A stretch of DNA of 64,000 nucleotides from Podarcis vaucheri (taxonomy: Eukaryota): the NCBI GenBank assembly GCA_965113315.1, contig OZ220367.1. One strand, 5' to 3'. This document shows positions 12,929 through 47,444 of this stretch, one piece after another. The stretch's first letter is position 1. The number at the start of each line of letters is the position of its first letter. The position numbers were made by a program, and so were the translations under genes. The notes under the pieces are model-generated. The model worked only from the letters and a program-made list of their open reading frames with translations. It was not told the origin of the DNA and searched no databases.

Positions 12929-13170
12929 CAGTGGTACCTCGGATTAAGTACAGTGGTACCTCAGGTTAAGTATTTAATTCGTTCCAGAGGTCTGTTCTTA
13001 ACCTGAAACTGTTCTTAACCTTAAGCACCACTAATGAGGCCTCCTGCTGCCGCCGCGCCGCCGGAGCACGATTTCTGTTCTCATCCTGAAGCAAAGTTCT
13101 TAACCCAAGGTACTATTTCTGGGTTAGCAGGGTCTGTAACCTGAAGCGTATGTAACCTGAGGTACCACTG
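12929..13170 (-). mobile_element. Tc1/mariner (pogo/Tigger-like) MITE, family A copy 1, with a duplicated left TIR
   Basis: TIR CAGTGGTACCTC(A/G)GGTTA with TA TSDs. Homologous to 47203-47444 (inverted) and 62632-62873 (same orientation). Strand is relative only. Confidence 0.9.
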
Positions 13171-13515
13171 TACGTATAATTTACGTATAATTTCAGAATT
13201 CTTAGCTGCATATTACGAGAGACCTGGGGAATACCAACCCGGGTTCTGCAGAAAGGGGACTTCTGAGCCCGCGACTTTTACACGGACACATAATGGATTC
13301 TGTGCACACTGGAACACATAGGTATACATTTTTGTGTCTTTTTAGGCCCTGAAGACGCCATGTCAGTAAAAAGTGACATATGGCCTGGCCCCGAAAGAGG
13401 ATTTGTTTGTGTGAGCCCTGGTTCAAAAGATGATTTCTGGACATTATGCGATCAAAGCAGCACCTGCAGAACGAAAAAGTTAACGAAAAGAAGAAAGCGG
13501 GGAAAGGAAACTAAC

Positions 13516-13714
13516 CTCGGGTGCATCCTGGGGTTTCTGTGCATTGTCTTTTTCTTTCTTGCTCTTTTGGTGTTCATTTCTGATGCGTTTTGTTCCAGAC
13601 AATTTTATCTTACTTTCCCCCTCCTGGGCGACATTATCTTGTTTTCGAGGTTTCACAGGAGGCAGTGGCTTATCTTCTTCTCCTTTAATAAATCTCTCAT
13701 ACGGCAGGATTAAT
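13516..13714 (-). CDS. ARID5B: ARID5B exon 9 equivalent (199 nt): end of ARID domain, LILPYERFIKGEEDKPLPPVKPRKQ...PQDAPE
   Basis: Acceptor ttctttag|A TTA ATC and donor GAG|gttagt. Phase 2 in, phase 0 out. The peptide matches ARID5B. Confidence 0.96.
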
Positions 13715-14932
13715 CTAAAGAACGAATAATTGATCAGTTCTAGAAGTTCTCACCCAAAAGACCCAAATAAAATAAATGGCTGTAAGAAGTTCATTGTTAA
13801 AAACTGTTTTTTGAAAGAAAGAAAAAAACACTCAAAACTAGAAGTCAAAGATGTGCAGTAGGATTTGGAAGCTGTTTCTTCTTCTCAAACTGCTGCTGAA
13901 TCAAATTATTTCCTCTGTCTTTCACACATTTTGCAACCACAAAGCTGAGTTTGCCAACCTCTCAGATGATACACAGTTTCCTAAACATCTGTAATATTCA
14001 CACTTTACATGTTTAGCTATACAATGTGTCTTTATGTGTAAACCTAAAAATGGGATGGTTCTGATCCACTTCAATTTATTTGTGACCAAGTCCTATTGAA
14101 ACTTACAGGTTAGCTGATACTAAATTAAGTCACATAAATTCAATTTAATCTGCACTCCAATTCACACTTTCCTGGAAGTCGGTCTCATTAAAGTTACTTC
14201 TGAGTACACACCTAAAGCATTGCAGTGTTAGCCATAAGTAACTTTAGCTGGATCAGGTCCAACAAGTGACAACAAGCAGAACATTTTTTTAAAAATCCAT
14301 TGAGATAAATGAGATTATGAAGCCAAATGGAATCGCTGGAGATGAGCTACATATCTCCCCCACTACTTTAAATAGATCTTAATGGAAATACTTTGTATTT
14401 AGTTCTTTGGCCTGTTTAAACAGCAACCGACTTGAGTTACAGAACTTCCCAACAGCAGTGCCATATATACCCTGAAAGTACAGAAGTACAGAAAATAGCA
14501 AATAATCCCAACTGGAACCTCAGGGTGGATTGCGGTGTGAACAGGTCTTAAGGAACCTCACATGGGTCAGTTCAGGTCTTGGGTCTGAAGTCCTTAAATC
14601 TGCCTCCAAAACAGTGCAGACTAGACATGCTAGCTCCCTTCCAACCATTGTCTCTAGATGCCTCTTGCCTTCTCTTCTCTGCAATCCCCAGAGGGCTTTC
14701 CCATAACTATTTGGATTCTCAGAGCTACCTGCGTAAGTCAGAAGCTAGAGGAGCAGAGTGCAATGGGAAGGGGTGAAGACAAAACTCAACCCAGCAGGGT
14801 TGCACATAGAATCCCAGAAGCTGGGGAGGAGGGATGTGGCCCCTCCACCACCAAACATCAGCATATTCTGGACTGTATCATCTTGTATCCTCTATCCTGT
14901 GGGCTAGATATGGTTCCATCAGAAGATGGAAG

Positions 14933-15030
14933 CAGTCTTCTCCAACCTGTTTTGCCCTCCATATGTTGTTGGACTACAGCTCTTATCATGCCTGGCCCCT
15001 GTGGCTGATGGGAACTGTAGTCCAACTGGT
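14933..15030. mobile_element. Degraded palindromic hAT-type MITE
   Basis: Internal inverted repeat gttggactacag / ctgtagtccaac. Resembles 37120-37255. Confidence 0.55.
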
Positions 15031-17307
15031 ATAGAAACCTTGTACTAGAATAGGGCCCATTTTGTGAGCAAGAAGATTCCTCTTTCTCTAGGGAAAGGGG
15101 GAAAAGGGCAAGCAGTGTCTACCAGGTGGTAGTTGGCACAGTGGGCAGGAACAAAAACGATTTTAAGAGACAATTAGAGAATTTTAATTACAGAGTTTTG
15201 TCTTTCAAACCATGGAAAAATTGCTTGGGGGAGGAGACAGAGATGCTTCAATCTGATTCCCACCCCCCCTCCACAGAGTGCCTCTTGAAATGAGGGTAAA
15301 TAAGCAGTGTTATTAAAAAGAATGGATTGGCTTACAATCTGAGTTTCAGCTCCAGTGATTAAAGTTCTTATAATGCATTAAACATGATTAATGAATGACT
15401 CATAGCAGGAATAATGCATGACTCCGACTTTTAAAAATATGAACTTTAGTATGGCAAACATTTTTTTTTAAAAAACCCCCCACAATAGGTATCTGTTGAA
15501 GAAAATGGACGTTGCTTTTTAAACAGCATTAATCTGTTCAAATATCAGACTTCTTTAATTATAGCTTAATCTAAGAGTTCAAGATAGAAAACTCTTTTTG
15601 TTCAGGCACAGATTTTTTTTGTTATTCCAGAATCAGCTCCAAGCCATCCAGTTTTAATTTAGATGTTCAAACACAGTTTGGCTTCAAGAGAGCTGGGATT
15701 AGCTTGCTTGCGATGATAGTATTTCACATTTTAATAAAATACAACATAAATTATGTTAAAAAGTAAACCTCATTTATGCCATATTAGAAACAAAATTCAT
15801 GAACTGAGCATGCTCTGACATGGGTATGTGCAGAGAGGCGTGAATAATACTTTTGAGCCCTGAATTTGGCAGCTGGCCAGTAATGAAGCTAAAGCAATGC
15901 CCAAGGGGAATGCTGGTCCTCAGATCCCATTACAAACTGAGTTTAAACATGTTACAGCTGCTAAAACTGAAAACAGCTCTCTCTATGCAGGCTTAGCAAA
16001 ATAATACGGACTTTGCCAAATACTTGCTTCCCACTGTAACATTACGGTTAATGTTTATGTAATAAAAAAAGAAGCATAACAAGGCAGAATAAAAAAAGGG
16101 GGGGAGAGAAAGAAATACAATCTTGTTCATACTTGAGGCTGCTAAATTTCATTTGTAACAAGCACAAAATATTCAAGGCACCCTTGAACATCTTTTCCCG
16201 TGCCTGGGACTTGAAGCAAGAGGAGGCGAGGTTGGGTTTCATCCAGAGCAATATTTATATCTTTTTCTGCCATGTGTTAAATATTTAAAGAATCAGATTT
16301 AACCAAAATACTTTTTTTTTTTTTTGGTGGCAATAGTTGTTAACACTGCAGAAAGGATTGTTTGACTTTGTTTGGTTGCCATGGGAACAGGCAGCCCATT
16401 TGAAATCTACATGTTTCGTCGGTAAATGTTTCAAAAGCTGCTCATAGCTTTAAAATTAGAGGATGATACTCTGCCACCACTAGGCCTTTTAAATAAAATA
16501 TTCTGTGTGATTATCCTGGCGGTTAAAGCAGAAACGGGACAAAGGCCAGCCCTGATAAGATTAATCACTGTTAGCACTCTTTCTGAGAAACCCTTTTGTG
16601 TCAGTTTTAAATTTGACCACCAAAAAGACAACAGCTTCCTGCCTCTTTGTTGCCATATAAATCCCTGGAACTCATTAGGTCAGAGGATAATTAGGAGTCA
16701 TGGCTGATGAGAGTTCAACGTTACAGGAGGACGGGCCTGCTGTTTCCATTTTTGTGATTTTGCTTTTTTTCACTGAGCTCAGCAGTTGGCAGAGGCCACA
16801 GTGGCAAAAATACATTTCACATAGCTGGTCAAATGCCTAGTGCCAACAGCAGGAAATTTGGAATTAAATGTTTCTTGTATCTGGAGAGAGGCATGACTAA
16901 GGTAAAAATTGAATCAAAACACAAGCACGGCTTGTTCTACTTGCATCAGCTCCCCACCCTGGACAGAAAATTCTAATGCAATGCTATTTCTCTACAGTAA
17001 CGAGGTGGGGTTGTTGGTTTTCGGTTTTTTTAAGCAAAGTAAAAAAAAAAAAAAAGCAGAGAGCTTAGGAGGATTAAAATGAAGCCTAACGCTATGAACA
17101 ATTGCAAGTTGACAGAGAGGTTTCCATTTGCTAGAATTTTCACTCTGTGGTCCCCCCACCCTTCCTTGCCTTCAGTTGCCCTGTCACGGTACAACACAAT
17201 TACCCGCAGGATGTGATCTTATCATTTGATTATTAGAAGCTGTTATAGTACAAGGGAAATAAAGCTGGTGGAACATTCAAAGCTTCAGCTAACATACTAT
17301 TAGAACA

Positions 17308-17308
<1 letters not shown>

Positions 17309-17348
<40 letters not shown>
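17309..17348. repeat. (CA)20 microsatellite
   Basis: Read directly. Confidence 0.95.
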
Positions 17349-17351
<3 letters not shown>

Positions 17352-19211
17352 TATTTAGTCAACTGTATTTCGTCAACTGCAGGTCAATATTCTCCAAATC
17401 AGGCAGAATATGATTCTCTGCTTTAAAACTTCCCCCACAGAATGCAACACGCTTGAAATGAGCAGCTCAATTTTGTGCTAAATAGCTGTCGCTTAGGCGA
17501 TTTAAATCAACCTCGGTGCAAGATAAAAGGTGTTTCGCAAACATTAACAGAAAAAATGAACCACAATGTGTATAAACCCTCATGTACAAAAAAATATATT
17601 AGACTTTGAAAGAGTTTTCAGTGTCAGATGTTGGGAGAAGAGTTCCTGTATTCGTAAGAAGCAATCTTGCCGAAAAGCCTAAGAATGGGGATGTGGGTTT
17701 AACCATCGCTGCTGTTGTTGTTACGCATAAGAATATCATCAATATGCATTCTGCTTTGTGGAGTTTCATAAGCAAAAAGGAAAAAAAAGGCAGATTTTTG
17801 CCCTCAAGGAGATTACAGTCTAAATTTTGAGAAGAGGAAGACTACAGAGGAAACGCAGAGGAGGGGAGTACACAGCAAGAGGAGGGCATTTACTTCCACG
17901 TAACCCAGGGTTTGGGTCTGCAGGGCGGGGGTGGAACATGCCTTTATTATGAACGCAATGCCTACATTCAGATTAATAAAATGCATTATTTATAGGATAA
18001 TTAACATAACGAGAATGTGTAAGCAGTAGCGTATTAAAGAACAATCCTTCTGCAGGCAGCAGATTTCTGAACAGCACGGGGCTATTTTTTCCACTGGAAT
18101 AATACAAGAATAACATTTTCCAGCCCAGAGCAGAAACAGTAGGGAAGTCTTTGCCATCAACTGAGCTTCTGATTAAATTCAATGACTATGAAAAGCAAGA
18201 TTATCCTTTTTAAAAAATAAATAAAGGCAACTTAAAAATCAATACGAGCTGGATGAACAAATCAGTGTTTTATTAATCCTGACACAATCAGAGATACATT
18301 ACATTTAATTGTGGGTACTCCCCCCCTCTTTTAGCGGGGGTGGGGGGAGGAGAAAGATTTTGCTTGGCTAAATGTTGAATTAAATACTAGTGCCTAGTAT
18401 TCTGAGTTTTTAGCTTTCAGCATCCTCTGATGTAATGAAAAATTCAATGTACTTCTCCACAGCAGAAGTCAGAGGTCATCAAATCTATTACAGTAATGTA
18501 AGTAATCTGGCTTTCTGCCAGCCTTTTAAAAAAAAAGGGGGGGGGAGAACCATGGAGGCAGATAATTTTATATTTACAAATTCTAAAATCCTCTGGGGAT
18601 TTTGTCTCATCTCCAACAAAAGGCAGAAACTTCACATTAGAAAAATGTATTTTACAGCATGTCAAACATGTCTTCATCATTAGTATTTCATAAAAGGCAT
18701 TAACCACACAACTCTTATCCTTCATTAGCCAACATTCTTCTCCTGTGCCATGGGAAAAATGCAACTCAAAATCTTATGCGTGTGTGTGTGTTTTTTTTAA
18801 AAAAAACTAAAGTGATAAGTACTAATGTTTCATATACTGATTAATTCTTGTGCCAAGCCACTACTCTTCTAAGTCCAACTCTATTGCGCAGGAAATAGTG
18901 GACTGCATCTATTTATAGTAATAAAAATAAAAGGGGTTAGAAGAATAACTCTTGAGGGGGGAGCATGAAAGGAAAGGAAATCTGTAGTCAAGGCTGCCAG
19001 CTCCATATTTAACTCTTCATTGTGACCTCATTCTTATGCTATGGGAGTGGCGTTCTTCTCGCTTGACTCTGGCCTCACCCCTTGCTTTCTCTGAGTAAGG
19101 TAAAATATAGGAAACACACAGGAAGAACAAGCTCATGTTGGGAGAACTGGTGTCAATGATGGTTCCTACATTCTTCCATTACTGGAACTGCATGGGATCA
19201 TAAGTTCTTAC

Positions 19212-19691
19212 CATAGAATCATAGAGCTGGAGGGGGCTACAAGGGTCATCTAGTCCAGTGTTTTTCAACCTTTTTTGGGCAAAGGCACACTTGTTTCATG
19301 AAAAAAATCACGAGGCACACCACCACTGTGTGCGGAGAGGGAGATGTCAGAGCCCCGCTGCTCTCTATGGGGAATCGGATGAGAGCGGACCGCCTGTCCG
19401 CTCTCATCCGATGCCATCCGATCTGATCCCCACCCAGGACGGATGGAAAATAGGGTGGACACAGTCCGGCGCCCGCCTAGTGGGAGAAAATTTGACTTTT
19501 TTTAAAAAAAAAAATCTTTCGAATTTTTCAATTTTTCCCACGGCACACCAGGCAACATCTCACGGCACACTAGTGTGCCGCGGAACAGTGGTTGAAAAAC
19601 ACTGATCTAGTTCAACCCCTGCAGTGTAGTAATCTTTCGCCCAACGTGGGGCTCTGTGATTAAGAGTCTCATGCTCTACCCATTTGCGCTA
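19212..19691 (-). mobile_element. tRNA-Lys-derived SINE with CR1-type tail, split by a hAT MITE
   Basis: catagaatcatagag tail at the left and reverse tRNA-Lys-like head (cccaacgtggggctc...ttaagagtctcatgctctacc) at the right. Homologous to 38120-38270. Confidence 0.75.
19256..19604. mobile_element. hAT (Charlie-like) non-autonomous element nested in the SINE
   Basis: TIR cagtgtttttcaacc / ggttgaaaaacactg. TSD atctagtc / atctagtt. Confidence 0.9.
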
Positions 19692-21818
19692 CTCTGAGAT
19701 ATTGCAGGAAAGACTTTGGGCTCATCCAAAAACAGGGAGCTATCATGGCCCTGGTTCAGCAAAGGAATGAGGCCAAAAGCCTGCAGCCAGCTTTTGTGTG
19801 AACTCTGCCATCCCTGTTGGTTTGAGGAGGGCTTTTTACCTTTGCCCATTGCTCCCGCCTGTGTATCAAATGATTGGCATTGTTTTTCTTATAGCTCCAG
19901 CTGTGTCTCTTAGAGTAGCTCCATTGACTTTAGCAAAGTTCACTCTCAGGTAGCTTGGGCTCAAGGATCATGGGTAAAACTACTCATTTTGCAAGTCAGT
20001 TTTCCCCGATTCCTTCTTTTGCTGCCTATGATTGCTGCTGAAAACCTCTTCTCTGTGCATGTGATCCAAACAGTGGGTATACCTCTCCAAGGTTAATGTG
20101 CAAATGGCCCATGCGCCCATGCTTAGGCCAATGGACACATTAGAGACTTAAAAATTAGCCTCAAGGACCCAGTTTGTTTTCCACTGACAATGAATGGCTT
20201 TCTTAAGTGATTCAGATCTAAGGGAATACATAATCATCTTTCATGGGAATGATTCAATTGTCACAACACCCTTTTCTTACAGTGACAATAGTTTAAATTG
20301 ATAAAAAGGGGTGGGTGCTAGAAAAATGGCAGAAATTATAGCTTACCAATCCTTGCTGCAGAATAGCCAAGATGTCATTAAAGGAATATTGATAGCAATG
20401 TAAGAAATGTAGCCCCCAAAAATCTCTCAAACCAATATTCGAATTCCAGGTGAATCCTGTCTTTGCTAGGTTTCCTTGGTCAAGATTTCCTCAGTAAGGT
20501 CTCTAGAGGAATTTCCACACAAATGAGCTTAAAGCCCACACAAATGAGCTTATTTCCCACAAGCTGTGGGGCAGGATCCATTCTAGTCACAACTAATCCA
20601 ATTGGGCTTGCACGACAGCTACAGGGGTTACATCCACTTTTGTGTCGTAACAGCAAAGTAACTCCAAACTCCCACAACAACAGAAATACCTCTTTACTTA
20701 GAAACTCCCTGCTATGCTTTCTGTTTGTCAGTTATGGTCTGGAGTGTTGTGTGGAAGCCATCTAAACCTCAGTCTCAAGTTACTTGCTTGCAGAACCAGG
20801 TCAGCAACAATCTACTTCATCGGGTTACTGAATTAGGAAAAAACTATCTTCAGTTTCTAGAAAATACAACACAACAAAGAAACAAAGGTTTCCAACAGCC
20901 TATATGGAACTCGCCAGATATTCCAGAGGTTTTTGGGGGGAACAAGAGTTCAAAAGGCAACAGTACTAATATGGGTACACTGATTCATCATCAGCTTCCT
21001 CTGAAGCACTTTGAAGAGGCCATTTTCACAAACAAACTGTGCAGAGCAAATAGTGGGGGTGGGCAATTCCTTTTCAGAGGTGAAGTTGCATGATTCTATA
21101 AAACAGCAGTACAAGCAGGAAAACGAAACCTGCCTGGTAACCACTGCCCTTTCATGAGTCTTTCTACGATAAAAACAAGTTAGTGAAGATCACCTACAGT
21201 GATGGGGACTCTAGGATGATCAAGATGAATGGTGATGATTAAGAACAGATCAATAATACTGGCACCTCCATATGTATGAATGTTCTGTCTAGGACAGTTT
21301 TTCGTAAAGGAGATTTGCAGCGATAGATGTTGGCCTTTCTTTAGAGCTTCATATTAGTTCCAGCCACTGACCTGAAAGTATACCACTATTTTAAAGACAT
21401 TCTATCTTCACAGTACTGCATGAGCTCAAGGGAAGTGCCATTCCATACTGAATCAGGAAAGCAGCAGAATGCATTCGCAAACCTACTATTTATAGCTTGC
21501 AGCTTGAATCAGGGTAGCACACATTGCAACTGCAAGCCCTAACATCAGGAGCAGGTTGATGGGGGTACACACTAATGTGGATACTGAATTACTCATGTTC
21601 AGTAGGACATGCTAACAGATGGCACATGATATCTCTCCTAATATGCTTCTAACACAGGGGGGTGCCAATCAAAGCTAAGCATTTTTCACTCCCCTTGATT
21701 TTGATGGGAATATTTATTGATGCGCTTAACTTTCACACAGAAATCTGTATGCTTTCACACAGAACTTTCACACAGAAAGTATGCCTCCATCTGCACTATA
21801 TGTATAAAGCAGTATTCC

Positions 21819-22038
21819 ACTTCCCCCAAAGACTCCTGGGTACTGTGGTTTTTTAAGGGTGCTGAGGGTTGTGAGGCCACCTATGCAGCTCACAATGCTA
21901 CAATTCCCATAGTTCCCTGGGAAAGGGGACTGAGTGTCAAAAACACTGGGAACTGTAGCTCTGTGGGGTCTCCTAAACACCCTTAACAGACTACAGTTCC
22001 CAGAATTCTTTGGGGGAAGTCATGACTATTTAAAGTGG
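21819..22038. mobile_element. Palindromic MITE-like squamate repeat
   Basis: ~40-bp inverted arms acttcccccaaagactcctggg...ttaaggg / cccttaa...cccagaattctttgggggaagt. Confidence 0.7.
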
Positions 22039-22042: not shown

Positions 22043-22380
22043 GCTGTGGTCTAAACCGCAGAGCCTAGGGCTTGCCGATCAGAAGGTTGGTGGTTCGAAT
22101 CCCTGCGACGGGGTGAGCTCCCCTTGCTCAGTCCCTGCTCCTGCCCACATAGCAGTTCGAAAGCATGTCAAAGTGCAAGTAGATAAATAGGTACCACTCC
22201 GGCGGGACGGTAAACGGTGTTTCCGTGTGCTGCTCTGGTTTGCCAGAAATGGCTTGGTCATACTGGCCACATGACCCGGAAGCTGTACACTGGCTCCCTT
22301 GGCCAGTAAAGCAAGATGAGTACTGCAACCCTAGAGTCATTCGAGACTGGATCTAATGGTCAGGGGTCCCTTTACTTTTA
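22043..22380 (+). mobile_element. Sauria SINE (subfamily 2), slightly 5'-truncated
   Basis: B-box ggttcgaatccc, core gcaagtagataaataggtacc, 3' tail cctttactttta. Confidence 0.9.
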
Positions 22381-23384
22381 CCCAACACTGCTTGACATGT
22401 ATAGTGCAGATGAAGCCTATGAGGCATCCATACATGTGTAATTTGATGCATGAAGATCAATCATTATTTTTCAAGTTTGGCTCATCTGCTATTAGCCTTA
22501 CTTTTGTCGGACTACAGATAAGAGGCCCAGTGTGTGTACACACACCATGCCTGATCCTGCCGTCCTACCACACATAAAGGGTGTTTATCGAAGGTATGCA
22601 TAACTAGGACTTTCATACGTAATACGTTTGCATTGTGGCTGCTTAAGTTAGCAAACTGAAGCAAGCCCCCCCCCCCAGCTGCGACCTTTCCTGCTGTGGC
22701 TGCAACAGAGAAGAGGTTGAATACCATATACTGAAGACTGTATTTGCAAAATTTTCCTGCTCAGAACTTCAATATTGCTCCCAAAGCACAACCTAACTTA
22801 ACATTCTGAAGGTTTGTTTTAAATTCCCTGATTGTGCGCGTATATAAAGAAGTTTCTTCGTTCACAAGGAGAACTTGTACTGATCTGTAGCTCAAATCAA
22901 ACACGTATATTACTGGCCAAACCAACCACAGCTTTGCTTTGTTCGCAAACAATGCTACCTCATTCCTTGCAGAAAGCTCTCTTTATTCCTTTAATCGGGG
23001 ACTTGTACTGAAGCCCAGTAGGGAAGGTTGCCAAGTACCTCACATACGACCAAAAAATGGGAAGGCGGCATATATGGAAAAGAAAGTCACTAAAACTTCA
23101 CCTAACACTGTCCTTGGGCTTCCATAGACCCTGCCTGCATCCAGTTCTGATCTGAAGGCTATTTTCAGTTTCCCCACAATATTCAGACAAAGAAGCCCAG
23201 AGAACGAGGAAAGCTTATTCTTGAGACTTAAGCTATGTAAACATTAGAGGCTTAAAAAGCAGTGAGGTTGTTTCACCCTTGTAGTGTTTCAGCACATTTT
23301 TATTTTGCTGCACAAACCGTGAGCGGGTGGGGATGTCTTCACCTGAAGTACATTGCCTGATGTGTCTTGTCATGCCCACAACCC

Positions 23385-27005: not shown

Positions 27006-27542
27006 TCTGCTGATCAGTTTTCATTTCTGAGGCCTGCCAACTCAAATCAAGAGATGCCAAAGTCGAAACCACTTGAGTTTTGAGGGGAAACCATTCAAAA
27101 TACAAACTGAAATTACAAGGGCAAATGCATGCTTTCAGAATTAGAATGGAAGAATTGGCAAATGTGAATATTTACAAATATTTGCTTCAGTTCTACATTT
27201 TTATTTACATCTCAATTACATCATCCATACATACACCTAAACATTTTTCACTGAAAGCAAGCTTCTTGCAAGGTATTCCATATGGTGGAAGTAAAGACTC
27301 CTAATGCCATCCATTGACATCCAACCCCTACAATCTACATGCATCGTATACCTAAGCTCTTTTTCTTCCTTCCTACTCAAATGGTTACCACAGAGTCTTA
27401 TATATTATTTCTTAGAGGCCAGCCCCTCTGAGTTCACAATGGGGCTTATTCTTAAATTATACAACTGCCACCACAATTTACTGAATCAGCGACATACAAT
27501 TTTGAATTGATTCAGCCAGTTTAGTTATTTAGTTATTGTTTA

Positions 27543-27707
27543 GGTAACGGTAAAGAGACCCCTGACTGTTAAGTCCAGTCACGGACAACTCTGGGGTTGC
27601 GGTACTCATCTTGCTTTACTGGCCGAGGGAGCCGGTGTTTGTCCGCAGACAGGTCATGTGGCCAGCATGACTAAGCCGCTTCTGGCGAACCAGAGCAACA
27701 CACGGAA
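27543..27707 (-). mobile_element. Sauria SINE 3' fragment (subfamily 2)
   Basis: ggtaaagagacccctgac...ggtcatgtggccagcatgactaagccgcttctggcgaaccagagc matches the 54194 copy. Confidence 0.88.
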
Positions 27708-30858: not shown

Positions 30859-31217
30859 AAGGTAAAGGTAAAGATACCCCTGCCCATACGGGCCAGTCGT
30901 GTCTGACTCTAGGGTTGTGCGCTCATCTCGCTCAAGAGGCCGTGAGCCGGCGCCATCCGAAGACACTTCCGGGTCACGTGGCCAGCATGACGAAGCTGCT
31001 CTGGCGAGCCGGCACCAGAGCAGCACACGGAAACGCCGTTTACCTTCCCACTATAAAGCGGTACCTATTTATCTAGTTGCACTTAGGGGTGCTTTCGAAC
31101 TGCTAGGTGGGCAGGAGCTGGGACCGAACGACGGGAGCTCACCCCGCCACGGGGATTCGAACCGCGATCGGCAAGTCCTAGGCACTGAGGTTTTACCCAC
31201 AGCGCCACCCGCGTCCC
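30859..31217 (-). mobile_element. Full-length Sauria SINE (subfamily 1)
   Basis: Reverse 5' end gggacgcgggtggcgctgtggg, (ACCTTT)n tail, 12-bp TSD aaatcatgctta (30847-30858 / 31222-31233). Confidence 0.93.
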
Positions 31218-31397
31218 TTTTAAATCATGCTTAGCCCTTCTTTATTTGAAAGGGGGAACACACACTGATTTTTGAAAGGGGAGCCCACAGAGAGCGCTTT
31301 TTCATGTCAGACCATCTTCCCTGTCACTGTCATTTTCTACTAGTAGCAGTTCTTCAGCATCTCAGGCAGACATCCTTCCTGGTCCTGACACCTGAGA

Positions 31398-31541
31398 TCA
31401 TAGAATCATAGAGTAGTAGAGTTGGAAGGGATCATGAAGATCATCTGGTCCAGCCCCCTGCAAGGCAGGAATCTTTCGCTGAGCATGGGGCTCAAACCCA
31501 CAACCCTGAGGGTAAGGGTCTCATGCTCTACCAACTGAGAT
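31398..31541 (-). mobile_element. tRNA-Lys-derived SINE with CR1-type tail, apparently nested in an older degraded tRNA-SINE (~31340-31620)
   Basis: tcatagaatcatagagtagtagagttggaaggg...ggtctcatgctctaccaactgag is the reverse of the 38120 copy. Confidence 0.78.
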
Positions 31542-34081
31542 ATCCTTCTATCCATTTGTTAAAAACAGCGTGGATTACACGTGAGATTTGGGGCGTGCAA
31601 AGCATGCTTGAGCCACAGTACTGTTCCTATCTAGTCCAAATTGTTACTAACGGATAAATCAAACCTGCAGAAAACTGTGTCAACTGCAACTCAACTGCTA
31701 ATACGGTTTTTAGGTGCCAGTCAACCTCTGCCAATTTTGTTTGTTTACAACTGCTTTCGTTGAAAAAGAACAGTTCTGCAACCTAGACAAATGGATTCAA
31801 TGGCCTTTCTTTCTAATAGTTTATTCAAAACGTTTTGCAAAATGCCATCTAACGTTGCTAGGCAAGGCCTCCAAATTTCCAAATTTCTTTCCAAATTTCC
31901 TATTACATTTTAAATCCGGTCTCATCTACAAAGTAGGCCTTATGCTGCTTAACTGAAGTGTGAAAACTGCAGCTTACTTTGCTACCACTTTAGGAAAACC
32001 TGCCTGAAATACAAACTTCTGTTGATGGGGGGAGGGGGAGAGCAGAAACCAAGAGACATCAAGAAGCCAGAAAACGTCCACCTGTAAAGTTAATATTCCT
32101 GTCTGAGAAAGGTAGGGTCCAATTCACAGAAGCAACAGCACCAACAAGCCCACTGCTTTGTTCCCAGTTCTCACAAAGCAAGAGAACAGAAGCATGAGTA
32201 ACAAGAACAGAAGCGCCAAAGTTTGGGAGAAAGAATTCTAGGCATGGCCAGACAACCTTTGCCCCACAAACGCATCCTGGCATGATCAATGGTAATTCAT
32301 GCTCCACTCATTATCTATTGGGGGGTGAGAGGGTATTTGGACCAATCAACCCTTCCTCCGCCTATCTACACCAGCACTGATTTGCAATGAGTAACAAAGA
32401 TTGCATTAAAACCACAAAGTGTGATTCCATGGCCACTTTTCTTCTCCTAGAAAAAACAATCAAGGCCACAATCTGGAACGGGGCCAAACATCAGGGTGAC
32501 AGCGACACCTTGGCTACTATTTGCCTCTGAAGTTGCTCTCCATGTAGCTGCTTTTTCTAGAAAACTAGGTGGCCAATGAAGCATGCTTTTTTAAAAAATG
32601 TGCTCAACACAACTTGTCGCTTGATCCTGAAATGGAGACTACACTCAAATGTCCCTCACAGCAGTCACCATCCATGTGGGCACTAACACTGCCTCTCCTG
32701 TATAGGGAGATTGCGAAAGGCGGTTTGTATGCAATTGAGTTATAGACAAATTTTAATTAATGCACTTAAATTAGTCGAGTCCATTGATTTCAATGGGTCT
32801 ACCCTTGAGTATGACTTAGTTGGATACCACACTATGTTCTTTTTCTCCCAAGCCATTTTCTTTGCCTCCCAAGAGAGGCAAAATCCCATGGAAATCAAGG
32901 TGACAAGGAACCAGCTAACCTCCATGGGATTTAATGGGACTTGCCTAAACTAAAATTCTCTAAACTGTGCTCACTGGCTATGATCCAAAGAGTCTGTTTA
33001 CTTTGACTCATATTATTCAGTGGGATCAACTGAGAACGGCCAACTCTTAATGTGGATTGTCCATAATTTGTACGGTTCCATCCAAGCTCCCACGCTAGAA
33101 GACATTTACTTACCTACCTGTAAGACTAATCAGATTTTCACTCTGGAATTTAAAATGAACAATAGTCCTATACAGAATATGGCTGGCACCTCACTTCTTT
33201 CAGTCTGGCTAGCAGTTAACACTTTAGAAAAGACACGTATGTTCAACGTATGTCAAAAAAGCATTGCAATGCTATAAGATGGTGATAAACAAACACTCTC
33301 TTGGCCCCTACAGGAAACTAGTTAGTGATCTGGAGCATGAGATCATATTGCTCATTTCAGAGCTTGAAAGCACACATATTTTATTAATGGCCGTATTTTC
33401 TCAAAATTCTTTTAAGGAAGCATCACAACCGTATCATGTTATCCGATGTACGCTGGATACCCAACCTTTGGAAACTATTATTAACTCAGAAAGGGTACAA
33501 AATCAATGTTTATAAAACAGCAACTCTGCTGCACTTTAGAAAGATAAATGGTTGTCAGCTGCAAGAAGAAAGGAGAGAAGAAAACATTAAAGGAATATGG
33601 AAGAAATGTCCCCCCCCCCCCGTTACTTATAATGGGAACATCCCACTAATCTGAAGACAGCCACACATTGCTTTATTTGCATTTATCTGCAGAGTGGTTT
33701 TTAAAAGACAAAAAACAACAACAACAAAAAACCAGCCAAAGCAGTTAAGATATGATCATTTTGTCCATCATCAAACTATCATCTGTTTTGCTCGTCAGTT
33801 ACAGCTTCTATATTATAGAAGCTTTGGTAAAACAAGGTATGAAGAAGAAAGGAATCAGAGCCCCCGATTTATTTGTTTTGCAATCGGAGACACACACTGG
33901 TTTAAATTACAGCATATTACAGGACTAAACTGGTGATGGAATATTTACTGGGCCTTTTGTAAGAGGCCTTCTTGGCTCTCCCCCCCCCTCTCTGCCCCCA
34001 TTTCTTTACAAAAGGCTTTGAAGTCCCTTCAAATTAATTTTTCTCCTTTATTAAACAAGCATTTCATATTTGTTATCTTAC

Positions 34082-34179
34082 CTTTCATAATGTCTACGAG
34101 TACACGTGGCTGCACTTGTGCTCCCAGGGTTACCACCTAATTCATCATAAATATGTTTCCATTGTCGGCGGGCTGTTAT
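34082..34179 (-). CDS. ARID5B: ARID5B exon 8 equivalent (98 nt): ITARRQWKHIYDELGGNPGSTSAATCTRRHYER
   Basis: Acceptor ttttacag|ATA ACA and donor GAA AG|gtaaga. Encodes the ARID core peptide. Confidence 0.97.
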
Positions 34180-35803: not shown

Positions 35804-37119
35804 ATTTCTGCACACACCACAGACAGAAATGGGCACAGTGGCGCAACAGGGCAGATTAGCCAAGAGGCAGGCATGGAACAAGAACATTGTGTTTTGATTA
35901 TCCCTGGAGGTTGAAATCGCTCTTGCGGTAGGTACGAGAGAGTGTTCATTCAAGCCCACTATGGCTCAGAGAAATGAAGTGACAAGGAAGTCAGTATTAA
36001 CCCGTCTTGGATTCTGTGCCAAGCGTGACTAGTTTTGAAGATCAAGGTGGAAAATGGCTGTTTGGTTGGTCTCACTGCACTTATTCAGTTAAAAGTGAAT
36101 AACCCAAATGTAAATGCACACTTTTAACAGAATGGATGCTCCTCTCCCCCATCTGTGAGCATTACAATTTAAGGTGTGGAAATGTTTAATAGAACACTTC
36201 TCTCTTTTTTTACTAATTCAGATTCAGTTTCTCTTGGCAGTCATGCCTGCTCTGAAATCAATAGGCCAGCACCACTTATTTACCATAGTGATTATGCTAA
36301 GTTATGCTGACGTGGTGATGAAAGACCCAGTTCCTGGAAGTCTTGACACCATGCCTTATTTAAAATTTTTAAAAATAAGGCCTAACGCGCGATGTCATAA
36401 TCTTCTTAAAGGATATGAACGAAGCAAACTTTTTTTCTGGAAAGTTCAGAAATCCCTGCCACCATTATATTTAGGGCATGATTGCTCACAAATCGACACT
36501 AGATTTTCCTTCCATTAGCAGCCTTTTAACAAAGTCTTTCCTCCATTTTTCCTTTGTGCTAGTGCGATATGGGGAGCAGACATACCGTCAGGATCCCTAC
36601 CGCTGCCCCCTGCTGCTCTCCGACTATTCTGTATTCCACTCCAAACTAACACAGTGCAACTCTACAAGTCAAATTCAGCCCACTAGCCAAGTAGAGCATC
36701 ACACCAGGGGCTCAGTGAGCTTACTGCTTTGCCGCTTGTCTGGAATTGCAAAAACATGGACTGTCTCAAACACCTGGCAGGCCAAGCTACTAATACTTGA
36801 CAAGCTCCATTTGGTTTGATGGGCCACAAGTTGTGCTCAGCTGTTCTATACAAATTTCACTTTCATACTGGAAAATGCAGTATGCTTCCAACTGTTGTTT
36901 AAAGTTTGGACAACTTATTGCTAGATAAAAGTGTCATTTTCCTTCTATCGTAAAAGGCTTCTTCAGTGCAATCTTTGCTCGAAGCTGCAATGGAAATGCC
37001 AAGCTCATATTCTGTCTTCCCATATTAATACAGACAATAACCCATTCATTGCAATGTTATTGCAATGTTTCCCTGTTTCCACTGCAACGATACCAAAGAA
37101 CAGTGAACTTTATCTAGGT

Positions 37120-37255
37120 CAGGCATGGCCAAACTTGGCCCTCCCGATGTTTTGAGACTACTGTTCCCATCATCCCTGACCACTGGTCCTGTTAGCTAGG
37201 GATGATGTGAGTTGTAGTCCCAAAACATCTGGAGGGCCAAGTTTGGCCGTGCCTG
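37120..37255. mobile_element. Near-perfectly palindromic 136-bp hAT-type MITE
   Basis: TIR caggcatggccaaacttggccctcc / ggagggccaagtttggccgtgcctg with a perfect TSD atctaggt. Confidence 0.92.
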
Positions 37256-37454
37256 ATCTAGGTGATCAATATTCTTCCCATGGTTAAATTTAAGTAATTA
37301 AAGTGTGCCTTCTGGAAACCTGGTCTTAAAAGACTATAAAGAGAACACCACCTGTAATGTTCATTTTTGATATTTGATTCAAGACAATCTGTTCTAATTC
37401 ATGTGTGTCCCTCTGTTTCTGCTTAAAGGTGCAACAATATTTGCACATGGTATC

Positions 37455-38119: not shown

Positions 38120-38270
38120 ATAGCTCAGATGGTGGAGCATGAGACTTTTAATCCCAGGGTTGTGGGTTTAAGCCCCACCTTAGGCAAAAAAAATTATGCA
38201 TTGCAGGGATTTGGACTAGATGACCTGCACAGTCCCTTCCAACTCTAGAGTCCTATGATTCTATGATTCA
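38120..38270 (+). mobile_element. tRNA-Lys(CTT)-derived SINE with CR1-type (ATTCTATG)n tail; not a functional tRNA
   Basis: The head tagctcagatggtggagcatgagacttttaatcccagggttgtgggtttaagccccac is a decayed tRNA-Lys. The tail is ggactagatgacc...cccttccaactc..ctatgattctatgatt. Confidence 0.82.
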
Positions 38271-39577: not shown

Positions 39578-40083
39578 CCATATTTTTCGCTCTATAGGAC
39601 ACACCCGACCATAGGACACCTTGTTTTAGAGGGGGAGAACAAGAAAAAGAAAATCTCCACTTCTCTGCGCAGCGCCCCTTCAGCGAAGCAGCAGGAGAAA
39701 TGGAGCCCCTTCCATTTCTCCTCCCACTTAGCTGAAGGGGCGCTGCGCCTGAGCTTAAGGGGCACCTACCCTGCAGTGAAAGGAACCCGAAGCCTCCGGA
39801 GCGCAGCGGGAGCTCCCGCTGCACTCCGGAGACTTCAGGCGGCTATCTTTGAAGCCTGGAGAGCGAGAGGGGTCAGTGCGCACTGACCCCTCTCACTTTC
39901 CAGGTTTCAGCAAAAGCAACGCGAAGCCTCCGGAGCACAGCGGGAGCGCTCCCACTGCACTACGGAGGCTTTGCATTGCTATCACTGAAGCCAAGGAGCC
40001 TGCATTCGCTCCATAAGACGCACACACATTTACCCTTAATTTTTGGAGGGGAAAATGTGTGTCTTATAGAGTGAAAAATACGG
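39578..40083. mobile_element. TcMar-Tc2-like non-autonomous element
   Basis: TIR ccatatttttcgctctatagga / tcttatagagtgaaaaatacgg after TA. The CpG-rich interior has two copies of gaagcctccggagc(g/a)cagcgggagc. Confidence 0.8.
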
Positions 40084-40127: not shown

Positions 40128-41488
40128 ATGTGGGGTGTGAATTAGGAGTATATGAGTACCAATGCAAATCTGCCACTTGGATCTCTATTAGGTGCATGCT
40201 GAAGTGTATCCAACACTTCTTATCTGAATTATGCTGGAAACTAATGGGCTGCACATGCACTAGGTTTTCAGAGGCACCCTTTCAAACTAGGAACCCCTTC
40301 TGTCCCACTGAAAAGCTGTTGCTGACAGTAGGAGTGCCGCAAAGCAGAAGGGAAAATATGGGCATCAGAATCTTGTTCAATCTGTGTATATGCAGGAGTG
40401 GTGCTAGTATCAGCATCCTGTATCCTCTGCCTCATCATTCCTGCACAGATCAGGGAAGCTTTCTCGTGTGCTTGCTTTAGTTGAATTGTTTGCAGCAGAA
40501 CACGAACTGCTTGCTGGCTGGGCAGACAGCCCCTTAAGCTTAGTTTGGTCAAAGTGATGAAAGCTTAAATCATAACTGCTAAATCCTGCGCATTATGAAA
40601 TCTCAATTTGTAAGTTTCACTCTACTGGAAAGAAGAATGGCTCAAAGGTTGTAACATGGTGTGAAAAATACAATGAATGTGGCATTTAAGGAGAAAACTA
40701 TAGTTTTACATTGGATAAGCATGATGAAGGTTAACAAGTTATGCAACATCTGGGAAGAGGGCTTATACAAATATTTTTAGCCGTTTTAATAGACTAAGGC
40801 AGAAATCCTTTCAGGGAGAAAGTTGTATTGAATACATTACGTAAGATGGCACCCCAAATGGCCAGATTGTTAGAAATAACTTCAAAGGCTATCTTGACTT
40901 CTCTTCATCACTACTCCATATTTTATCTTACTTTGCTGCTGTTTTTTGTGTGTAAACTACCCACTTATTTGAATATAAAATCTGGAACAATGTAAGGGCC
41001 AAGATTTAAGGCGTGTCATTAACTTGATGGCTCCAACTTGACAGACTTGCCTAATTTCACTTTCTAATAGCATTTGCCCAGAAGTGTTGGAGAAAGGCAA
41101 ATAAAATTTCCTTCTCATGAGCTTCCAGCTAATGCATATGTTACTTTAAACCACAAGAGAGCACTGCTTCTCTAGCAATCTAGCCAACACTTGTTTGTAA
41201 CTCTCTGTCTAAGTTAACTCCAACCCTAAAAGCTGAGCCATTTTTCTCTCTCCCTACTTGTTGAGAAAATATGTCTTCTATTCTCTCTCATCTCTACAGT
41301 AAATAGTTCCTGCATGAATAAAGCCTCTGAACACCAAAAACTGTAACAGAAGCAGAACTTTCCAAAACTTAGCACATTGGAATCATATACATCCTTACTT
41401 CAAAGCAAAACTCAAAGAATACTTTTAATGCTTGTATTATCAGCTGATTAGCTAGACTTTTTTTTAGCCTTCCTTAGTGCTTAAATGA

Positions 41489-41843
41489 GGGACGCGGGTG
41501 GCGCTGTGGGTAAAACCTCAGCGCCTAGGACTTGCCGATCGCATGGTCGGCGGTTCGAATCCCCGCGGTGGGGTGCGCTCCCGTCGTTTGGTCCCAGCGC
41601 CTGCCAACCTAGCAGTTCGAAAGCACCTCCGGGTGCAAGTAGATAAATAGGGACCGCTTACCAGCGGGAAGGTAAACGGCGTTCCATGTGCTGCGCTGGC
41701 TCGCCAGATGCAGCTTGTCACGCTGGCCACGTGACCCAGAAGTGTCTGTGGACAGCGCTGGCTCCTGGCCTATAGAGTGAGATGAGTGCACAACCCTAGA
41801 GTCTGGCAAGACTGGCCCGTACGGGCAGAGGTACCTTTACCTT
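41489..41843 (+). mobile_element. Full-length Sauria SINE (subfamily 1)
   Basis: Starts gggacgcgggtggcgctgtggg, has B-box ggttcgaatccc, ends gtacctttacctt. TSD gtgcttaaatga / gtgcttaaataa. Confidence 0.94.
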
Positions 41844-43025
41844 GTGCTTAAATAAGAAGTTCTGCTTTAGTTTTATTATTGTTGTTTTAGTATATTTAGT
41901 TTTTGATGTTTTCTGTACATTGCTCAGAGAACAACAGCTATTTGGTGTACCCAATGTAGTGAATAAATTTAAATAAATTAGAGTTGGGTTAACTCCCAAG
42001 TAAACAAGCACAGAATCAGGCACTCAGATCAGATGCAAACCAAAGAAAGTCAACTAAAGCTACCAATACCTGCATGTGATTACTATTTCACAACCATAGA
42101 TATGTTAGCTAACTGCACAGGCATTAAAATGACACAACAGGCTTTGTTCTATGGGACAAATACCAGAGTGATTACATTTCAGCTTAAATTAATTTCAGCT
42201 TTTGTGTTCTCTGTTACTTCATTATGGAATAGATGCAGCCCAGATTTATACTCAGTGAACAAAGCAAAACAAATAAATATATCTAGCTAGCTAGCTATTT
42301 AAATATGTTTTTTGCATTCAACTGTGGCAGGAAATGCACAACCTAATCTGAGCATTATGGGCTGGAGAAATATTCCCAATGACGATAGTCTTATGTCAAA
42401 TGGGCTTTATTGCAGATGCCATCTTTATATGCCATATTAAAGCAGCTCTTTCTTCTCGTTTCAAGATCTTAATCGCAGTTTGTTGCTCCAACGTTTTATT
42501 GGTTTGGAATACATGCTGTAAAATCCGCAACCATCAAATTTCCCTGTGAGCTAAAAATAAAGTGGCCATGTCAAATATGGTTAGTTGATAAAAAGTGTCA
42601 GAGTATTCTGCTTCCCTCCCCCCTTGCCTTTATACTTTGGATAACTTCCTGTTTATGTGGCACTGACCCTTGTCTAATAAAGATCTTTTACTATTCACAG
42701 TAAAGAAAGATACTGCACCAAGCTATTCCTTAATGGACAACGCTGATTACTTTTGAAAGCATTTAATACATTTCCCATATTCCAACATGAACAGATGTCA
42801 GGGACTATGCCAAGTGAAATTTCATTTTATGCAATCTTGGCTTGTTGTACAAGAATAGCCCTTTCTCAACATGGGAAAAAATTACAGACCCAACCAATTT
42901 CCTTGACAGGGAAGAGTTACACATGTTTTCCACTCAAGAAGTGTTTTTTTCTTCTTCAACAAGTTTACAGTTTTGCCAAACCTGGAACTAATTGGGGCTT
43001 TTTCTAAAAAAGGACCCAATAACCC

Positions 43026-43027
<2 letters not shown>

Positions 43028-43059
<32 letters not shown>
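43028..43059. repeat. (GT)16 microsatellite ~120 nt downstream of the exon 7 donor
   Basis: Read directly. Confidence 0.95.
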
Positions 43060-43062
<3 letters not shown>

Positions 43063-43181
43063 ACATTGTTATTTCCTGTGTGTGTCTATGTGTGTGTGTT
43101 TGAGAAAAAGAAACACCACCCCGAACAGGGGAAAGCTAGATTACACATTTTTTTCCCCATTTAAGTTACTTAAACACTTAC

Positions 43182-43234
43182 TGTTTCATATCCTCCCAGT
43201 TTTTGAGCAGCTTGAAACATAGTCCAAAGGTTAA
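43182..43234 (-). CDS. ARID5B: ARID5B exon 7 equivalent (53 nt): (I)NLWTMFQAAQKLGGYET
   Basis: Acceptor ctctaacag|TT AAC CTT TGG and donor ACA|gtaagt. Too short for the ORF track; read by hand. Confidence 0.96.
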
Positions 43235-46200
43235 CTGTTAGAGGGACAATAAGTATTTAGATAAGCATTGCATTAACCAACTTTTTTCAAAGAAATGCAA
43301 ATCAAACAGTTTTTCTTTCACAGTGAAGCAAGAAGATAACAATCACATCTACGCACACAAAAATGTTTTTTTTTTGGGGGGGAGGGAGAAACACAAACAA
43401 TCTGCAAATGACATTTACATAATTCAAAGAGTAAACATTGGCTTTGCACATATACCATTCCTTTCTTAAAATCACAAGGGAAAACATTTCTCTGAGATAC
43501 AGTTACAGATATAAAATTTTTTTTTTTTTTTTACTGAGCTTAAATTCACTTCCAGGATATAAAACAAACAGCATAAAAAACAAAACACACGAAATAAGCT
43601 TTGCATTATATGTTCCTATATAAAACTAACATAGTTATTAGAAAGAGCATTATTTTTAAAATGTCATTTAGTTAATGTAGCAGGAAACTGGAGTGCATAC
43701 ACAAAGCAGTCCTTGATTAAACAAGTATTTACTGCCACTCAGATAAGAGACCTTGGCTGGGATCCAGAGATCCTCTTCCACATGAGGAAACAAGCTGCTA
43801 CAAGTGGAGCAGCTCATTTCATCATGAATGTAGCCTGCAGGGTGAGGAATATCAAGATGCACCCAGAGCGACCGTATCTCCCATACAACTGCACCCCAGC
43901 TTTCTCAGAGTCTAAACCATCTCAAGAGGTCTTGAGGTCTCACAGATCATGCACTGTCTTATGTGGACCTCCCAAAAGTGTTAGCGCTCCCCAATAGCCA
44001 GGCGTGTTCCTTGCAAAGTCATGCTGCCCCTGCACTCATCTATGAAACTCTTGAAAGTAGGGGAAGCCCTATGGGGAACTTCCACTGGTGGGAACATTTA
44101 TAGCCCCATGGTCCAGATCCCAGGCATGGGTGTCTTGTACATAACATCTGCCACCAGGAGTGCGTTGCCTGTTTCCTGCTATCATCCCTATTTTGCAACT
44201 AGCATAAAATGCACAGCTGTCTCTGCACTGGTTGTTTCAAACCATCCCTGCTGTTGATTGGTGCCAAACTAAGTCTCTAATGGATCAAATTTGACTGACA
44301 TGGTTAGATGGGATGGTTTGCAGAATTTTGGTTTACGCTGGCACAAACGTCCTCAAGCATCCAAAATACCAATGGTTGTGGACATTTCAGAATGCGTAAC
44401 TAAAGCTTGGTCCACTACAGAGCTGGCAAAAATGAATATCTTTAACATTTGAGCTAAGGAAGGGTGCAAATTCCATCATTCCACATGAAGTGGATGCCAT
44501 TTGTTGGCTATTGAACTCATGTCAAAGAGCTTAGCTAGAGAGATAGACATAAATCAATATATTTTGATGTGATTATACCTCCCTATATGATCATGACTTA
44601 TTTTTAAATTGTCCGTATATCTGCACTTTAATCCAATTGTCTCTTTTAATAAAGGTTTCCTTTTAAGTTTAAAGGGGGAAAGGGGCCAAGCACTTTTAGA
44701 ATCCTCTGTAATGAGAGAACTACAGAATGCAGTAAAATAGGTTCGACTGCATTTTTTTCTCTCCCTTTACCCCATCAAAGAGCTTCTCATAATGGTGCTG
44801 TATGAATTGCCTCCAAAATATTACATAAATTATGGGTGTTCCCCAGGGAGTAGTACTCATTATTGAACCACACAGCACAGCAAAGAACATTCACTGTACT
44901 TATTCAGCAACAGAGGAATTATATTATTTAAACTGGTTCTTCCTACTCATGTGTTTACACATGTCAAGGTAGACAAACACAGCGACTACTCCTGGCCATT
45001 ATATGAGCAGCTCATTTACTCCTGAGTAATCTTGCTCTGAGGAAACATGAGGCACATTGCTGAATATCAAACAAGTCAGTTTATCTCAGCTACATGTTGC
45101 AGAGTGATCTCATGGCAACGCTGGGAAATTGAGACCCAATAAATACCTGCTTTTAAAAATGTGCCTCTTTGTTAGTGACAAATAAGGGGGGGGGAATTAA
45201 CATTACACACACACACACACACACACTACATCTCAAAATGTTCTAAATAAAAAGCTTCACTGAACCTTGCACTCTCCCTGAGCTATCAAGAGCTTTGCTC
45301 GGGCCTTGATTTAATCGGAATCAAATGCATAATGCAACAAAGCTGTTCATAGTACATTAATTTTACTTCTATTTCAAGCAGCCGGTTTTTCAGGCAAACA
45401 TTGTAATCATTTTGGAGTTATATAAGTTTATAATGACTGCTAGAGGTCTGTTGCAATCAGTGTCAATTGCTATTAGGTATGTAAATTGTTATGTAAAACA
45501 TAGAGGTTTGACATTCTTCATCAAAATAACATACACATTTAATCTGGGAAGATAGGTTTGAGAAAGTCATATTTCCATGTAAGGCATTCCTCCCTTTATA
45601 ATAATTTAGATACCTTATAGGTTATTAAAAGCACACCTTTCATCGTTTGCGATGTTCATTCTTCCATGCTATAGAATGTTTATGCAAAATTTAATTACAG
45701 TTGCATGTTCTCTATCAATTGTTGCTTTTATAAGCACTGACTCAAAAAGTGCTCTTTCCAAAGCAATCCTTAGCATTGTGCTATGATGTCTTTAAACAGA
45801 TCTTGTCTATTTTTATACTCTGTGACCTCCTTCACCTACTTTCTGGCCACCTTTAGATGCCTTCCTTTTATATCTGTGGGACTCCCCCCCCCCGAAGGAA
45901 CATCTGGGTACAATAAAAGTATGTCGTATTATTAATTCAAGGGAAGACATTAGCTGCAGTATTTATCAAAAGGAGAGGGAGAGCAGGAACCTTTTTAAAC
46001 ATGCCAGGTTCTGAGCGCAAGCAGTGTATTTTAAAACTATAAATTTCCACCAGCAGTTGCCCAAAATGAAGAGAAACTGCAAGATAGGGGATGGAAAAAT
46101 GTATTGGTGGATATAAACACAATGACAACAACTCTCGTTTCAAAGGTCCCAGTGTGCATGTATGTACATATGTGTTTTCCTTTTTAAGGTTTTTACTGGC

Positions 46201-46583
46201 TGGCATACAAAGATCTCCTCGTCGTGCCTATGGGAGCTTTGGGATACTGTTTCTCAAACAGCATTGTTCCCCCCCCCCACCTCCCAAATCCACACGGCAA
46301 ACCACTTTGAAAACCGAGAAGACTTTTAAAAGTCATTTGCTTTATGGCATTGGTGGTGGGGTTTCTGCTCAAAGGGCGGGAGGGGAAATCTCAATGCCTA
46401 TAAAGCTCTAGATCCTGACAATTAGTTTTATAGTAAATGTACAGTGCAAAAGAAGAGACAAAGAGAAAGCTAAAGAGGGCCATATCTGCCCACAAAGTTG
46501 TCCCACCTTATCAAGCCGATCAACCCCAGAAGCCAAACTGTTCTAAAATGTCAAACCAAAAATGCAATGAAAATTCTACTTAC

Positions 46584-46788
46584 TCTGCTTAAAACCAAGG
46601 TACGGTATTCGTTCAATTGGTGTTTTTCTTTCTTTCATATATTTATAAAGTGCCACAAGGAATGCCTGTTCATCCGCTCTGCATTCTTCACCTACAGAAA
46701 CCTTTGATTTATCCTCGCTTGAGCCCTTTTTACAGTTGCTGTTGTTATTTTTGGTTTTGTGCAAAGGCAATTTAGCCTCACATTTTAC
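46584..46788 (-). CDS. ARID5B: ARID5B exon 6 equivalent (205 nt): VKCEAK...ADEQAFLVALYKYMKERKTPIERIPYLGFKQ(I), start of ARID domain
   Basis: Acceptor cttttcttccag|GTA AAA TGT and donor CAG A|gtaagt. The peptide matches ARID5B, including the ERKTP lysine equivalent to human K336. Confidence 0.97.
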
Positions 46789-47202
46789 CTGGAAGAAAAG
46801 AGGAGATGCCAGATTAGATCTTGAAAACTGCCTGCTCCAGCTTTCATTCCCATTTAAGAGATGACCCCCTTCTGCTCCATCACGCCCTCTCTTTCTCAGA
46901 AGGCCAACAACAACATTAAAGCTCTTTCTCTGTGTTTTAGGTGCAATATTTCCAAACTGTTGCATCTCGATTTCCCTACTTCCTTTGCCTCTCATTCTTT
47001 GCCTCCACTCTGTGTTTGTTTAATTCTTTGGACAAGTCAAGAACCTAAAGAGAACATGAAGCCGTGTCTTCTCTCCTTTAAGTTATTGCTCTGTGGTTTC
47101 CTGGCCCAACCTCATGCCATTTGCTTTTTGAGTCTTCCCTGTTGTATCTAGGTCTCCGCTGCAGCCTGCCGGATCCCTAGTGCTGCTTACCCCTCCCTTA
47201 TA

Positions 47203-47444
47203 CAGTGGTACCTCGGGTTACATACGCTTCAGGTTACATACGCTTCAGGTTAAAGACTCCGCTAACCCAGAAATAGTGCTTCAGGTTAAGAACTTTGCTT
47301 CAGGATGAGAACAGAAATCGTGCTCCGGCGGCACGGCAGCAACAGGAGGCCCCATTAGCTAAAGTGGTGCTTCAGGTTAAGAACAGTTTCAGGTTAAGTA
47401 CCAACCTCCGGAATGAATTAAGTACTTAACCCGAGGTACCACTG
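47203..47444 (+). mobile_element. Tc1/mariner MITE, family A copy 2 (inverted relative to copies 1 and 3)
   Basis: Perfect TIR cagtggtacctcgggtta / taacccgaggtaccactg with TA TSDs. Confidence 0.93.

Follow-up and report, generated by a model that had tools for sequence, protein, structure and literature searches.

Probably neutral insertions of an abundant pogo/Tigger-type MITE bracket exons 6-9 of ARID5B in Podarcis vaucheri

The question raised by a 64,000-nt stretch of DNA from the lizard Podarcis vaucheri (GenBank assembly GCA_965113315.1, contig OZ220367.1; the whole stretch is called the window here) is whether two similar repeats, lying in opposite orientations on either side of exons 6-9 of the gene ARID5B, have any effect on the transcripts of that gene. 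An initial annotation of the window proposed that these two miniature inverted-repeat transposable elements (MITEs) promote back-splicing of exons 6-9 into a circular RNA (circRNA) with an endless open reading frame, or the skipping of the same exons to give a messenger RNA (mRNA) without the ARID domain. We consider it probable that the pair represents independent, neutral insertions of an abundant pogo/Tigger-type MITE, with at most a low-level, non-functional back-spliced by-product. In its strongest form the proposal would have the short-isoform promoter as the main source of an abundant ARID5B circRNA, specific to lacertids, that either yields a protein of repeated ARID domains or depletes the ARID5B mRNA; this seems to us highly improbable.

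The window holds the 3′ part of lacertid ARID5B on the minus strand. Exons were positioned from translation and splice motifs: exon 5 at 56377-56489 (113 nt, phase 0 at its end), exon 6 at 46584-46788 (205 nt), exon 7 at 43182-43234 (53 nt), exon 8 at 34082-34179 (98 nt), exon 9 at 13516-13714 (199 nt, phase 0 at its end) and the coding part of exon 10 at 5744-7882 (712 amino acids, 99% identical to Podarcis ARID5B proteins). An AG acceptor and a GT donor are found at every one of exons 6-9, and the placed splice sites confirm the block size first given, 205 + 53 + 98 + 199 = 555 nt. The block was also said to encode the whole ARID domain. Two fragment matches to the Pfam ARID model (PF01388), both below the whole-protein cut-off, support this for positions 2-29 in exon 6 (E 0.011) and 50-82 in exon 8 (E 0.0034); exon 9 searched alone against the same model gave no match, and its share of the domain is something that we infer.

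MITE copy A lies in intron 5 (47201-47446, plus strand), 414 nt before the exon 6 acceptor; it has a TA at each end and carries terminal inverted repeats. Copy B lies in intron 9 (12949-13172, minus strand), 345 nt after the exon 9 donor, inverted to A and 88.6% identical to it over 219 nt. It is a shorter, older variant from which one 16-nt unit and 6 internal nt are absent, and it carries a 22-nt tandem duplicate of its left end (12927-12948; with the duplication, this part of B spans 12926-12972). The inverted pair is thus as first described, and with the repeat boundaries then used its distances, 414 and 345 nt, are exactly right. Copy C in intron 4 (62630-62875, minus strand) is likewise inverted to A, with 89.8% identity over 246 nt, and a fourth copy, D, lies just beyond the window at 66611-66845 in window numbering.

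Measured against the majority of nine close A-like copies, which themselves differ by 0.4-2.8%, copy A diverges by 2.0%, B by 6.7% and C by 8.9%, while the best other matches in the genome are 97-98% identical to A and 93-94% to B. Because the divergences differ and B is shorter with a duplicated end, A and B came from separate, independent insertions of different times, A being young and B older. The right end of A is joined to the same flank in DNA contigs of two relatives. In the first, 41 nt of A are bridged to the flank (intron 5 divergence 2.0%, 147/7,252), and in the second 23 nt of A stand beside the flank, below our 31-nt rule (intron 5 divergence 1.3%, 96/7,253), so that the end is probably present there too. 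Copy A therefore predates these species splits.

The family to which the copies belong is very large. A terminal 20-mer has 50,165 exact matches in 1.615 Gb and an internal 20-mer 42,423, with none for the reversed-pattern control of either, which puts the family at a minimum of 42,423 copies by exact count. Forty arbitrary 10-kb stretches hold 17 copies of at least 100 nt, equal to 42.5/Mb or approximately 69,000 genome-wide, together with 34 copies of a short interspersed nuclear element (SINE) in the same 400 kb, and 14 MITE copies occur in the 264 kb around ARID5B. The copies are short (224-246 nt), non-coding and numerous, and TA-CAGTGGTACC ends are seen at A, B and most of 14 other loci. 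They resemble pogo/Tigger transposons and MITEs in the TA at either end, in short terminal inverted repeats whose first bases are CAGT and in the lack of coding capacity, and we take the family to be of pogo/Tigger type within the IS630-Tc1-mariner group.

Among loci with a DDE_1 transposase domain, 150 were scored and 30 examined. In one of the 30, the 2,957-bp element L082, the ends agree with those of the MITE at 20 of 21 bases, and a 596-amino-acid open reading frame contains DDE_1 and HTH_Tnp_Tc5 domains; related ends occur at 3 further loci of the 30. The Tc1/mariner label initially given to the repeats fits this match to a pogo/Tigger-type transposon. Apart from the ends, the alignment of L082 to the MITE covers no more than about 36 nt in one subterminal region. 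As the MITE interior is not shared, we regard L082 as a related mobiliser and at most a candidate for the parent. L082 itself (positions 321-3277 of its locus, G000:C25) has near-perfect terminal repeats and an open transposase frame, and open frames of 575 or 631 amino acids, with identical scores, are seen at many of the other DDE_1 loci, which suggests young families. In contigs from other loci the MITE end corresponding to 47446 is joined to the SINE start at 54191-54198, and 47447 is joined back to 47201; a MITE end at such loci often lies beside the 5′ end of a SINE, or two MITEs stand in tandem. The MITE/SINE adjacency hints at shared TA-rich insertion sites.

Whether A and B could act together depends on their pairing. 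The fold comparison called for by the initial annotation came out in favor of inter-copy pairing: the predicted A:B duplex has -388 kcal/mol and 215 inter-copy pairs, against -84 and -82 kcal/mol for the two self-hairpins (z -4.3 and -4.6), energies that take no account of kinetics, distance or proteins. The idea that self-hairpins alone block A:B pairing was rejected, since at equilibrium the duplex is the favored state. Pairing of A with B over the 34 kb between them could occur in some nascent transcripts, and it would keep the donor of exon 9 close to the acceptor of exon 6. Back-splicing needs the upstream intron to be still unspliced when the downstream exon is made, according to passages of one study (PMC6376117), and here intron 5 would have to remain unspliced until exon 9 is made. 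Copy A would also have to stay out of its own hairpin and, where the transcript is of the long isoform, avoid pairing with C and D, which are made earlier; normal linear splicing is expected to dominate.

The third copy had been proposed as a competitor, and the predicted C:A duplex is indeed stronger than A:B (-413 vs -388 kcal/mol; D:A -338), with C and A only 15 kb apart rather than 34 kb and C transcribed first. This competition would fall away in the short isoform, from whose transcripts C is probably absent. A 937-amino-acid short isoform occurs among lacertid ARID5B models, and short isoforms in other lizards begin with M followed by exon 5. A fitting candidate first-exon end, ATG plus G and then a GT donor, lies at 57838-57847 (minus strand), 1.35 kb before exon 5; with this donor near 57843, the start of the short isoform is probably downstream of C.

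Several points weigh against reading the pair as neutral insertions. When three copies were dropped at random into the window introns in 400,000 trials, inverted copies no farther than 414-500 nt from an acceptor and from a donor downstream of it arose in only 0.25-0.37% of trials, and in 0.07-0.11% when an in-frame block was required. The number of pairs this close that is expected genome-wide, 91-152 (31-386 over the Poisson range, about one third of them in frame), assumes 0.72-1.2 million acceptor-donor pairs, gene and exon numbers, and uniform insertion. Copy A has persisted across species, the A:B duplex is approximately 210 kcal/mol better than both hairpins at equilibrium, and since the candidate short-isoform start lies downstream of C, transcripts from it probably lack both competitors, C and D. 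For Alu-dependent human circles, passages of PMC6487579 give a cut-off of 2,300 nt, and the arms here are far nearer to their splice sites than that. The protein databases used below miss rare or tissue-limited mRNAs and cannot reveal circles. At the sampled density, a gene with eight internal exons has a chance of about 0.5% of such a bracketing. The bracketing is therefore beyond chance for this gene but not genome-wide: it marks a one-in-hundreds gene of the kind expected in a genome scan. The caveat attached to the initial annotation, that the abundance of the family might by itself lead one to expect such bracketing, thus applies genome-wide. As one of about a hundred such pairs expected, A/B matters little as it stands.

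On paper the locus would fit the pattern of circRNAs promoted by inverted repeats, as reverse complementarity between flanking introns and arms close to canonical splice sites are both present, and it can be viewed as an ordinary candidate. It resembles inverted Alu, B1 or SINE circRNA loci in having two copies of one young repeat family in opposite orientation in the flanking introns with a long duplex possible, as described in parts of PMC8516420 and PMC6487579. It differs from them in that the arms are DNA-transposon MITEs with terminal hairpins of their own, and in that the block spans 33 kb, the host is a lizard and the circle is a predicted one. In passages of PMC8516420 mammalian circRNA loci are tied to young, species-specific transposons and read as splicing by-products, and a section of PMC6487579 holds that irrelevance is the likelier status of circles that arise from random inverted insertions. 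Of the back-splice-promoting geometry first proposed, the strong reverse-complementary match near both splice sites is real, but its occurrence somewhere in the genome is expected by chance. Given the modelled duplex, some exon 6-9 back-splicing would be plausible, while translation or function of the circle is unlikely.

RNA came from relatives approximately 99% alike, P. vaucheri itself being represented by DNA runs only among those listed, and four runs (X24, X3, X19 and X17) were compared with 46680-56445. In the raw RNA run of one relative the exon depth is only about 2-4× (bin means 0.67 and 0.94), which gives no power for a circle or a skip, and no RNA contig of X3 lies over the exon bins of this region. 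The read joints listed (15 of 676) and loose ends (24 of 3,137) are all repeat-derived, and even the normal exon 5-6 joint is not among them. MITE A itself has a pooled RNA depth of about 1,100× in run X24, from both strands, to which thousands of copies contribute reads; other RNAs of the relative widely carry the family along as a transcribed passenger. Our literature search found no ARID5B circRNA, although full circRNA tables, circBase and circAtlas lay outside it and a mammalian circle is possible. The circRNA papers examined mention ARID5B as the target of a microRNA or by way of background, never as the host gene of a circRNA, and 12 text supplements of PMC8516420 (26,479 characters) have no ARID5B row. 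A search for lizard circRNA gave nothing relevant by title.

The neutral reading has to be set against a more active one, in which A and B together measurably raise the output of a 555-nt circRNA of exons 6-9, mainly from the short isoform and specific to the lineage, with no protein product or selected function. It draws on arms that are no more than 415 nt from the splice sites and have many predicted inter-copy pairs, on flanking introns of 9.6 and 5.6 kb, on a likely short-isoform start downstream of C, and on the young transposon pairs that mark mammalian circRNA loci in passages of PMC8516420. A 34-kb span with three introns to remove, the self-folding of each copy and the lack of any circARID5B in the literature searched speak against it. 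The reads, which at their exon depth have no power either way, lend it no support, and we consider it doubtful, though worth some weight. The pair might instead loop out exons 6-9 to give, at a meaningful level, an in-frame exon 5-to-10 mRNA without ARID. The end of exon 5 and the start of exon 10 are both in phase 0, so the join itself would be in frame. To look for it we used 201 ARID5B proteins, all automated gene models (the best 120 of 434 matches and 81 cluster members); 12 lack the exon 5 anchor and the other 189 were scored. Exon 5 continues into exon 6 in 150 of these and into exon 8 in 36, with 3 odd or unparsed, and the exon 5-to-10 join is found in 0/189, while 0/22 lacertid entries are without all of exons 6-9, even though the expected lengths of the products (about 995 and 752 amino acids) lie within the range searched. 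The 36 entries that skip exons 6-7 do indicate that ARID-breaking skips are tolerated in gene models, but 35 of them are from birds or turtles and the skip is therefore presumably independent of the MITE pair. The ARID-less mRNA of the initial annotation thus finds no counterpart among these proteins, and we think it very unlikely.

The last reading to be weighed is rolling-circle translation, giving concatemers of the ARID domain that bind DNA or compete with ARID5B. The circle of exons 6-9 has 0 stops in frame 0, against 8 and 23 in frames 1 and 2, and its 185 codons include Met at codons 51 and 74, so the stop-free frame with in-frame ATGs is as the initial annotation described it. What does not survive is its standing as a special feature. 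Whenever the two ends of a block of coding exons share a phase, the circle has no stop in the coding frame, and 4 of the 15 circles possible from exons 5-9 (5-6, 6-7, 6-9 and 8-9) are stop-free, all by phase symmetry. The frame as a sign of selection was accordingly rejected: it is the ARID5B reading frame, three other possible circles are stop-free too, and the property belongs to the gene and not to the MITEs. In the sections seen of PMC6487579 and PMC7544230, tested circRNAs gave no endogenous products and apparent translation was traced to linear RNAs. As translation moreover presupposes a circle known only as a prediction, we regard this reading as extremely improbable.

What the neutral reading leaves of interest is the family. 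Its 40,000-70,000 copies of mixed age offer material to test whether pairs of self-hairpinning DNA transposons promote back-splicing as Alu does. Were an ARID5B circle abundant after all and either translated or a drain on the mRNA, a DNA-transposon MITE pair would have built a new regulatory circle in a reptile, and a circle that is abundant or translated would place ARID5B among the rare conserved transcription factors known to have been rewired by new insertions.

A better lead on ARID-broken isoforms of ARID5B may be the conserved skip of exons 6-7. It is in-frame, joins the exon 5 donor (56377) to the exon 8 acceptor (34179), removes 258 nt and with them roughly the first half of the ARID domain, and is found in the bird and turtle entries (for example P0029 and P0088) and in one Podarcis muralis UniRef entry (P0126). 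Like the proposed exon 5-to-10 product it is an in-frame ARID loss starting at the exon 5 donor, but it takes 258 rather than 555 nt, occurs in lineages far from the MITE pair and rests on automated models. No paper on this skip turned up in a literature search on ARID5B exon skipping. A circle of exons 6-7 would likewise have a stop-free frame, and in the window these two exons lie between SINEs of opposite orientation (54193/41489).

The SINE copies, which we take to be Sauria-SINE-like, lie in introns 5, 7 and 8. The copy at 54193-54548 (intron 5, plus strand) is inverted to those at 41489-41843 (intron 7, minus strand) and 22044-22382 (intron 8, minus strand), the latter pairing bracketing exons 6-8. 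The 41489 copy is also inverted to one at 30859-31217 (intron 8, plus strand), bracketing exon 8, and a partial copy lies at 27542-27707 (intron 8, plus strand). Four SINE pairings form stronger predicted duplexes than the MITEs, -493 to -647 kcal/mol; they bracket exons 6-7, 6-8 or 8, or sit inside intron 8, and lie farther from the splice sites than the MITEs.

Other inverted repeats are also present. A further short repeat, presumably tRNA-SINE-like, forms an inverted pair (31397-31543 and 38120-38267, 76% over 148 nt) that brackets exon 8. Local inverted repeats or palindromes of up to about 220 nt, 67-89% complementary, lie at 39667-39992, 37114-37261 and 21819-22020 in introns 7 and 8, and are probably other MITE-like elements. 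Near intron 2, at approximately 184919-185485 in window numbering (L063-L069), two opposite copies of the MITE about 110 nt apart would fold as a local hairpin in the pre-mRNA.

The gene models around the ARID exons show two further variations. Upstream of exon 6 its frame runs on through 77 codons of intron 5 without a stop (46789-47019, minus strand), and a Podarcis lilfordi model (P0124) begins at an ATG in this stretch, about 200 nt from MITE A; either an internal start or an artefact of the model could account for this. At exon 7, lacertid ‘X2’ models (P0003, P0005, P0006 and P0008) are without 8 residues at the exon start, inside ARID, which suggests an alternative exon 7 acceptor, and primate ARID5B entries of 1180 and 1187 amino acids may differ by the same event.

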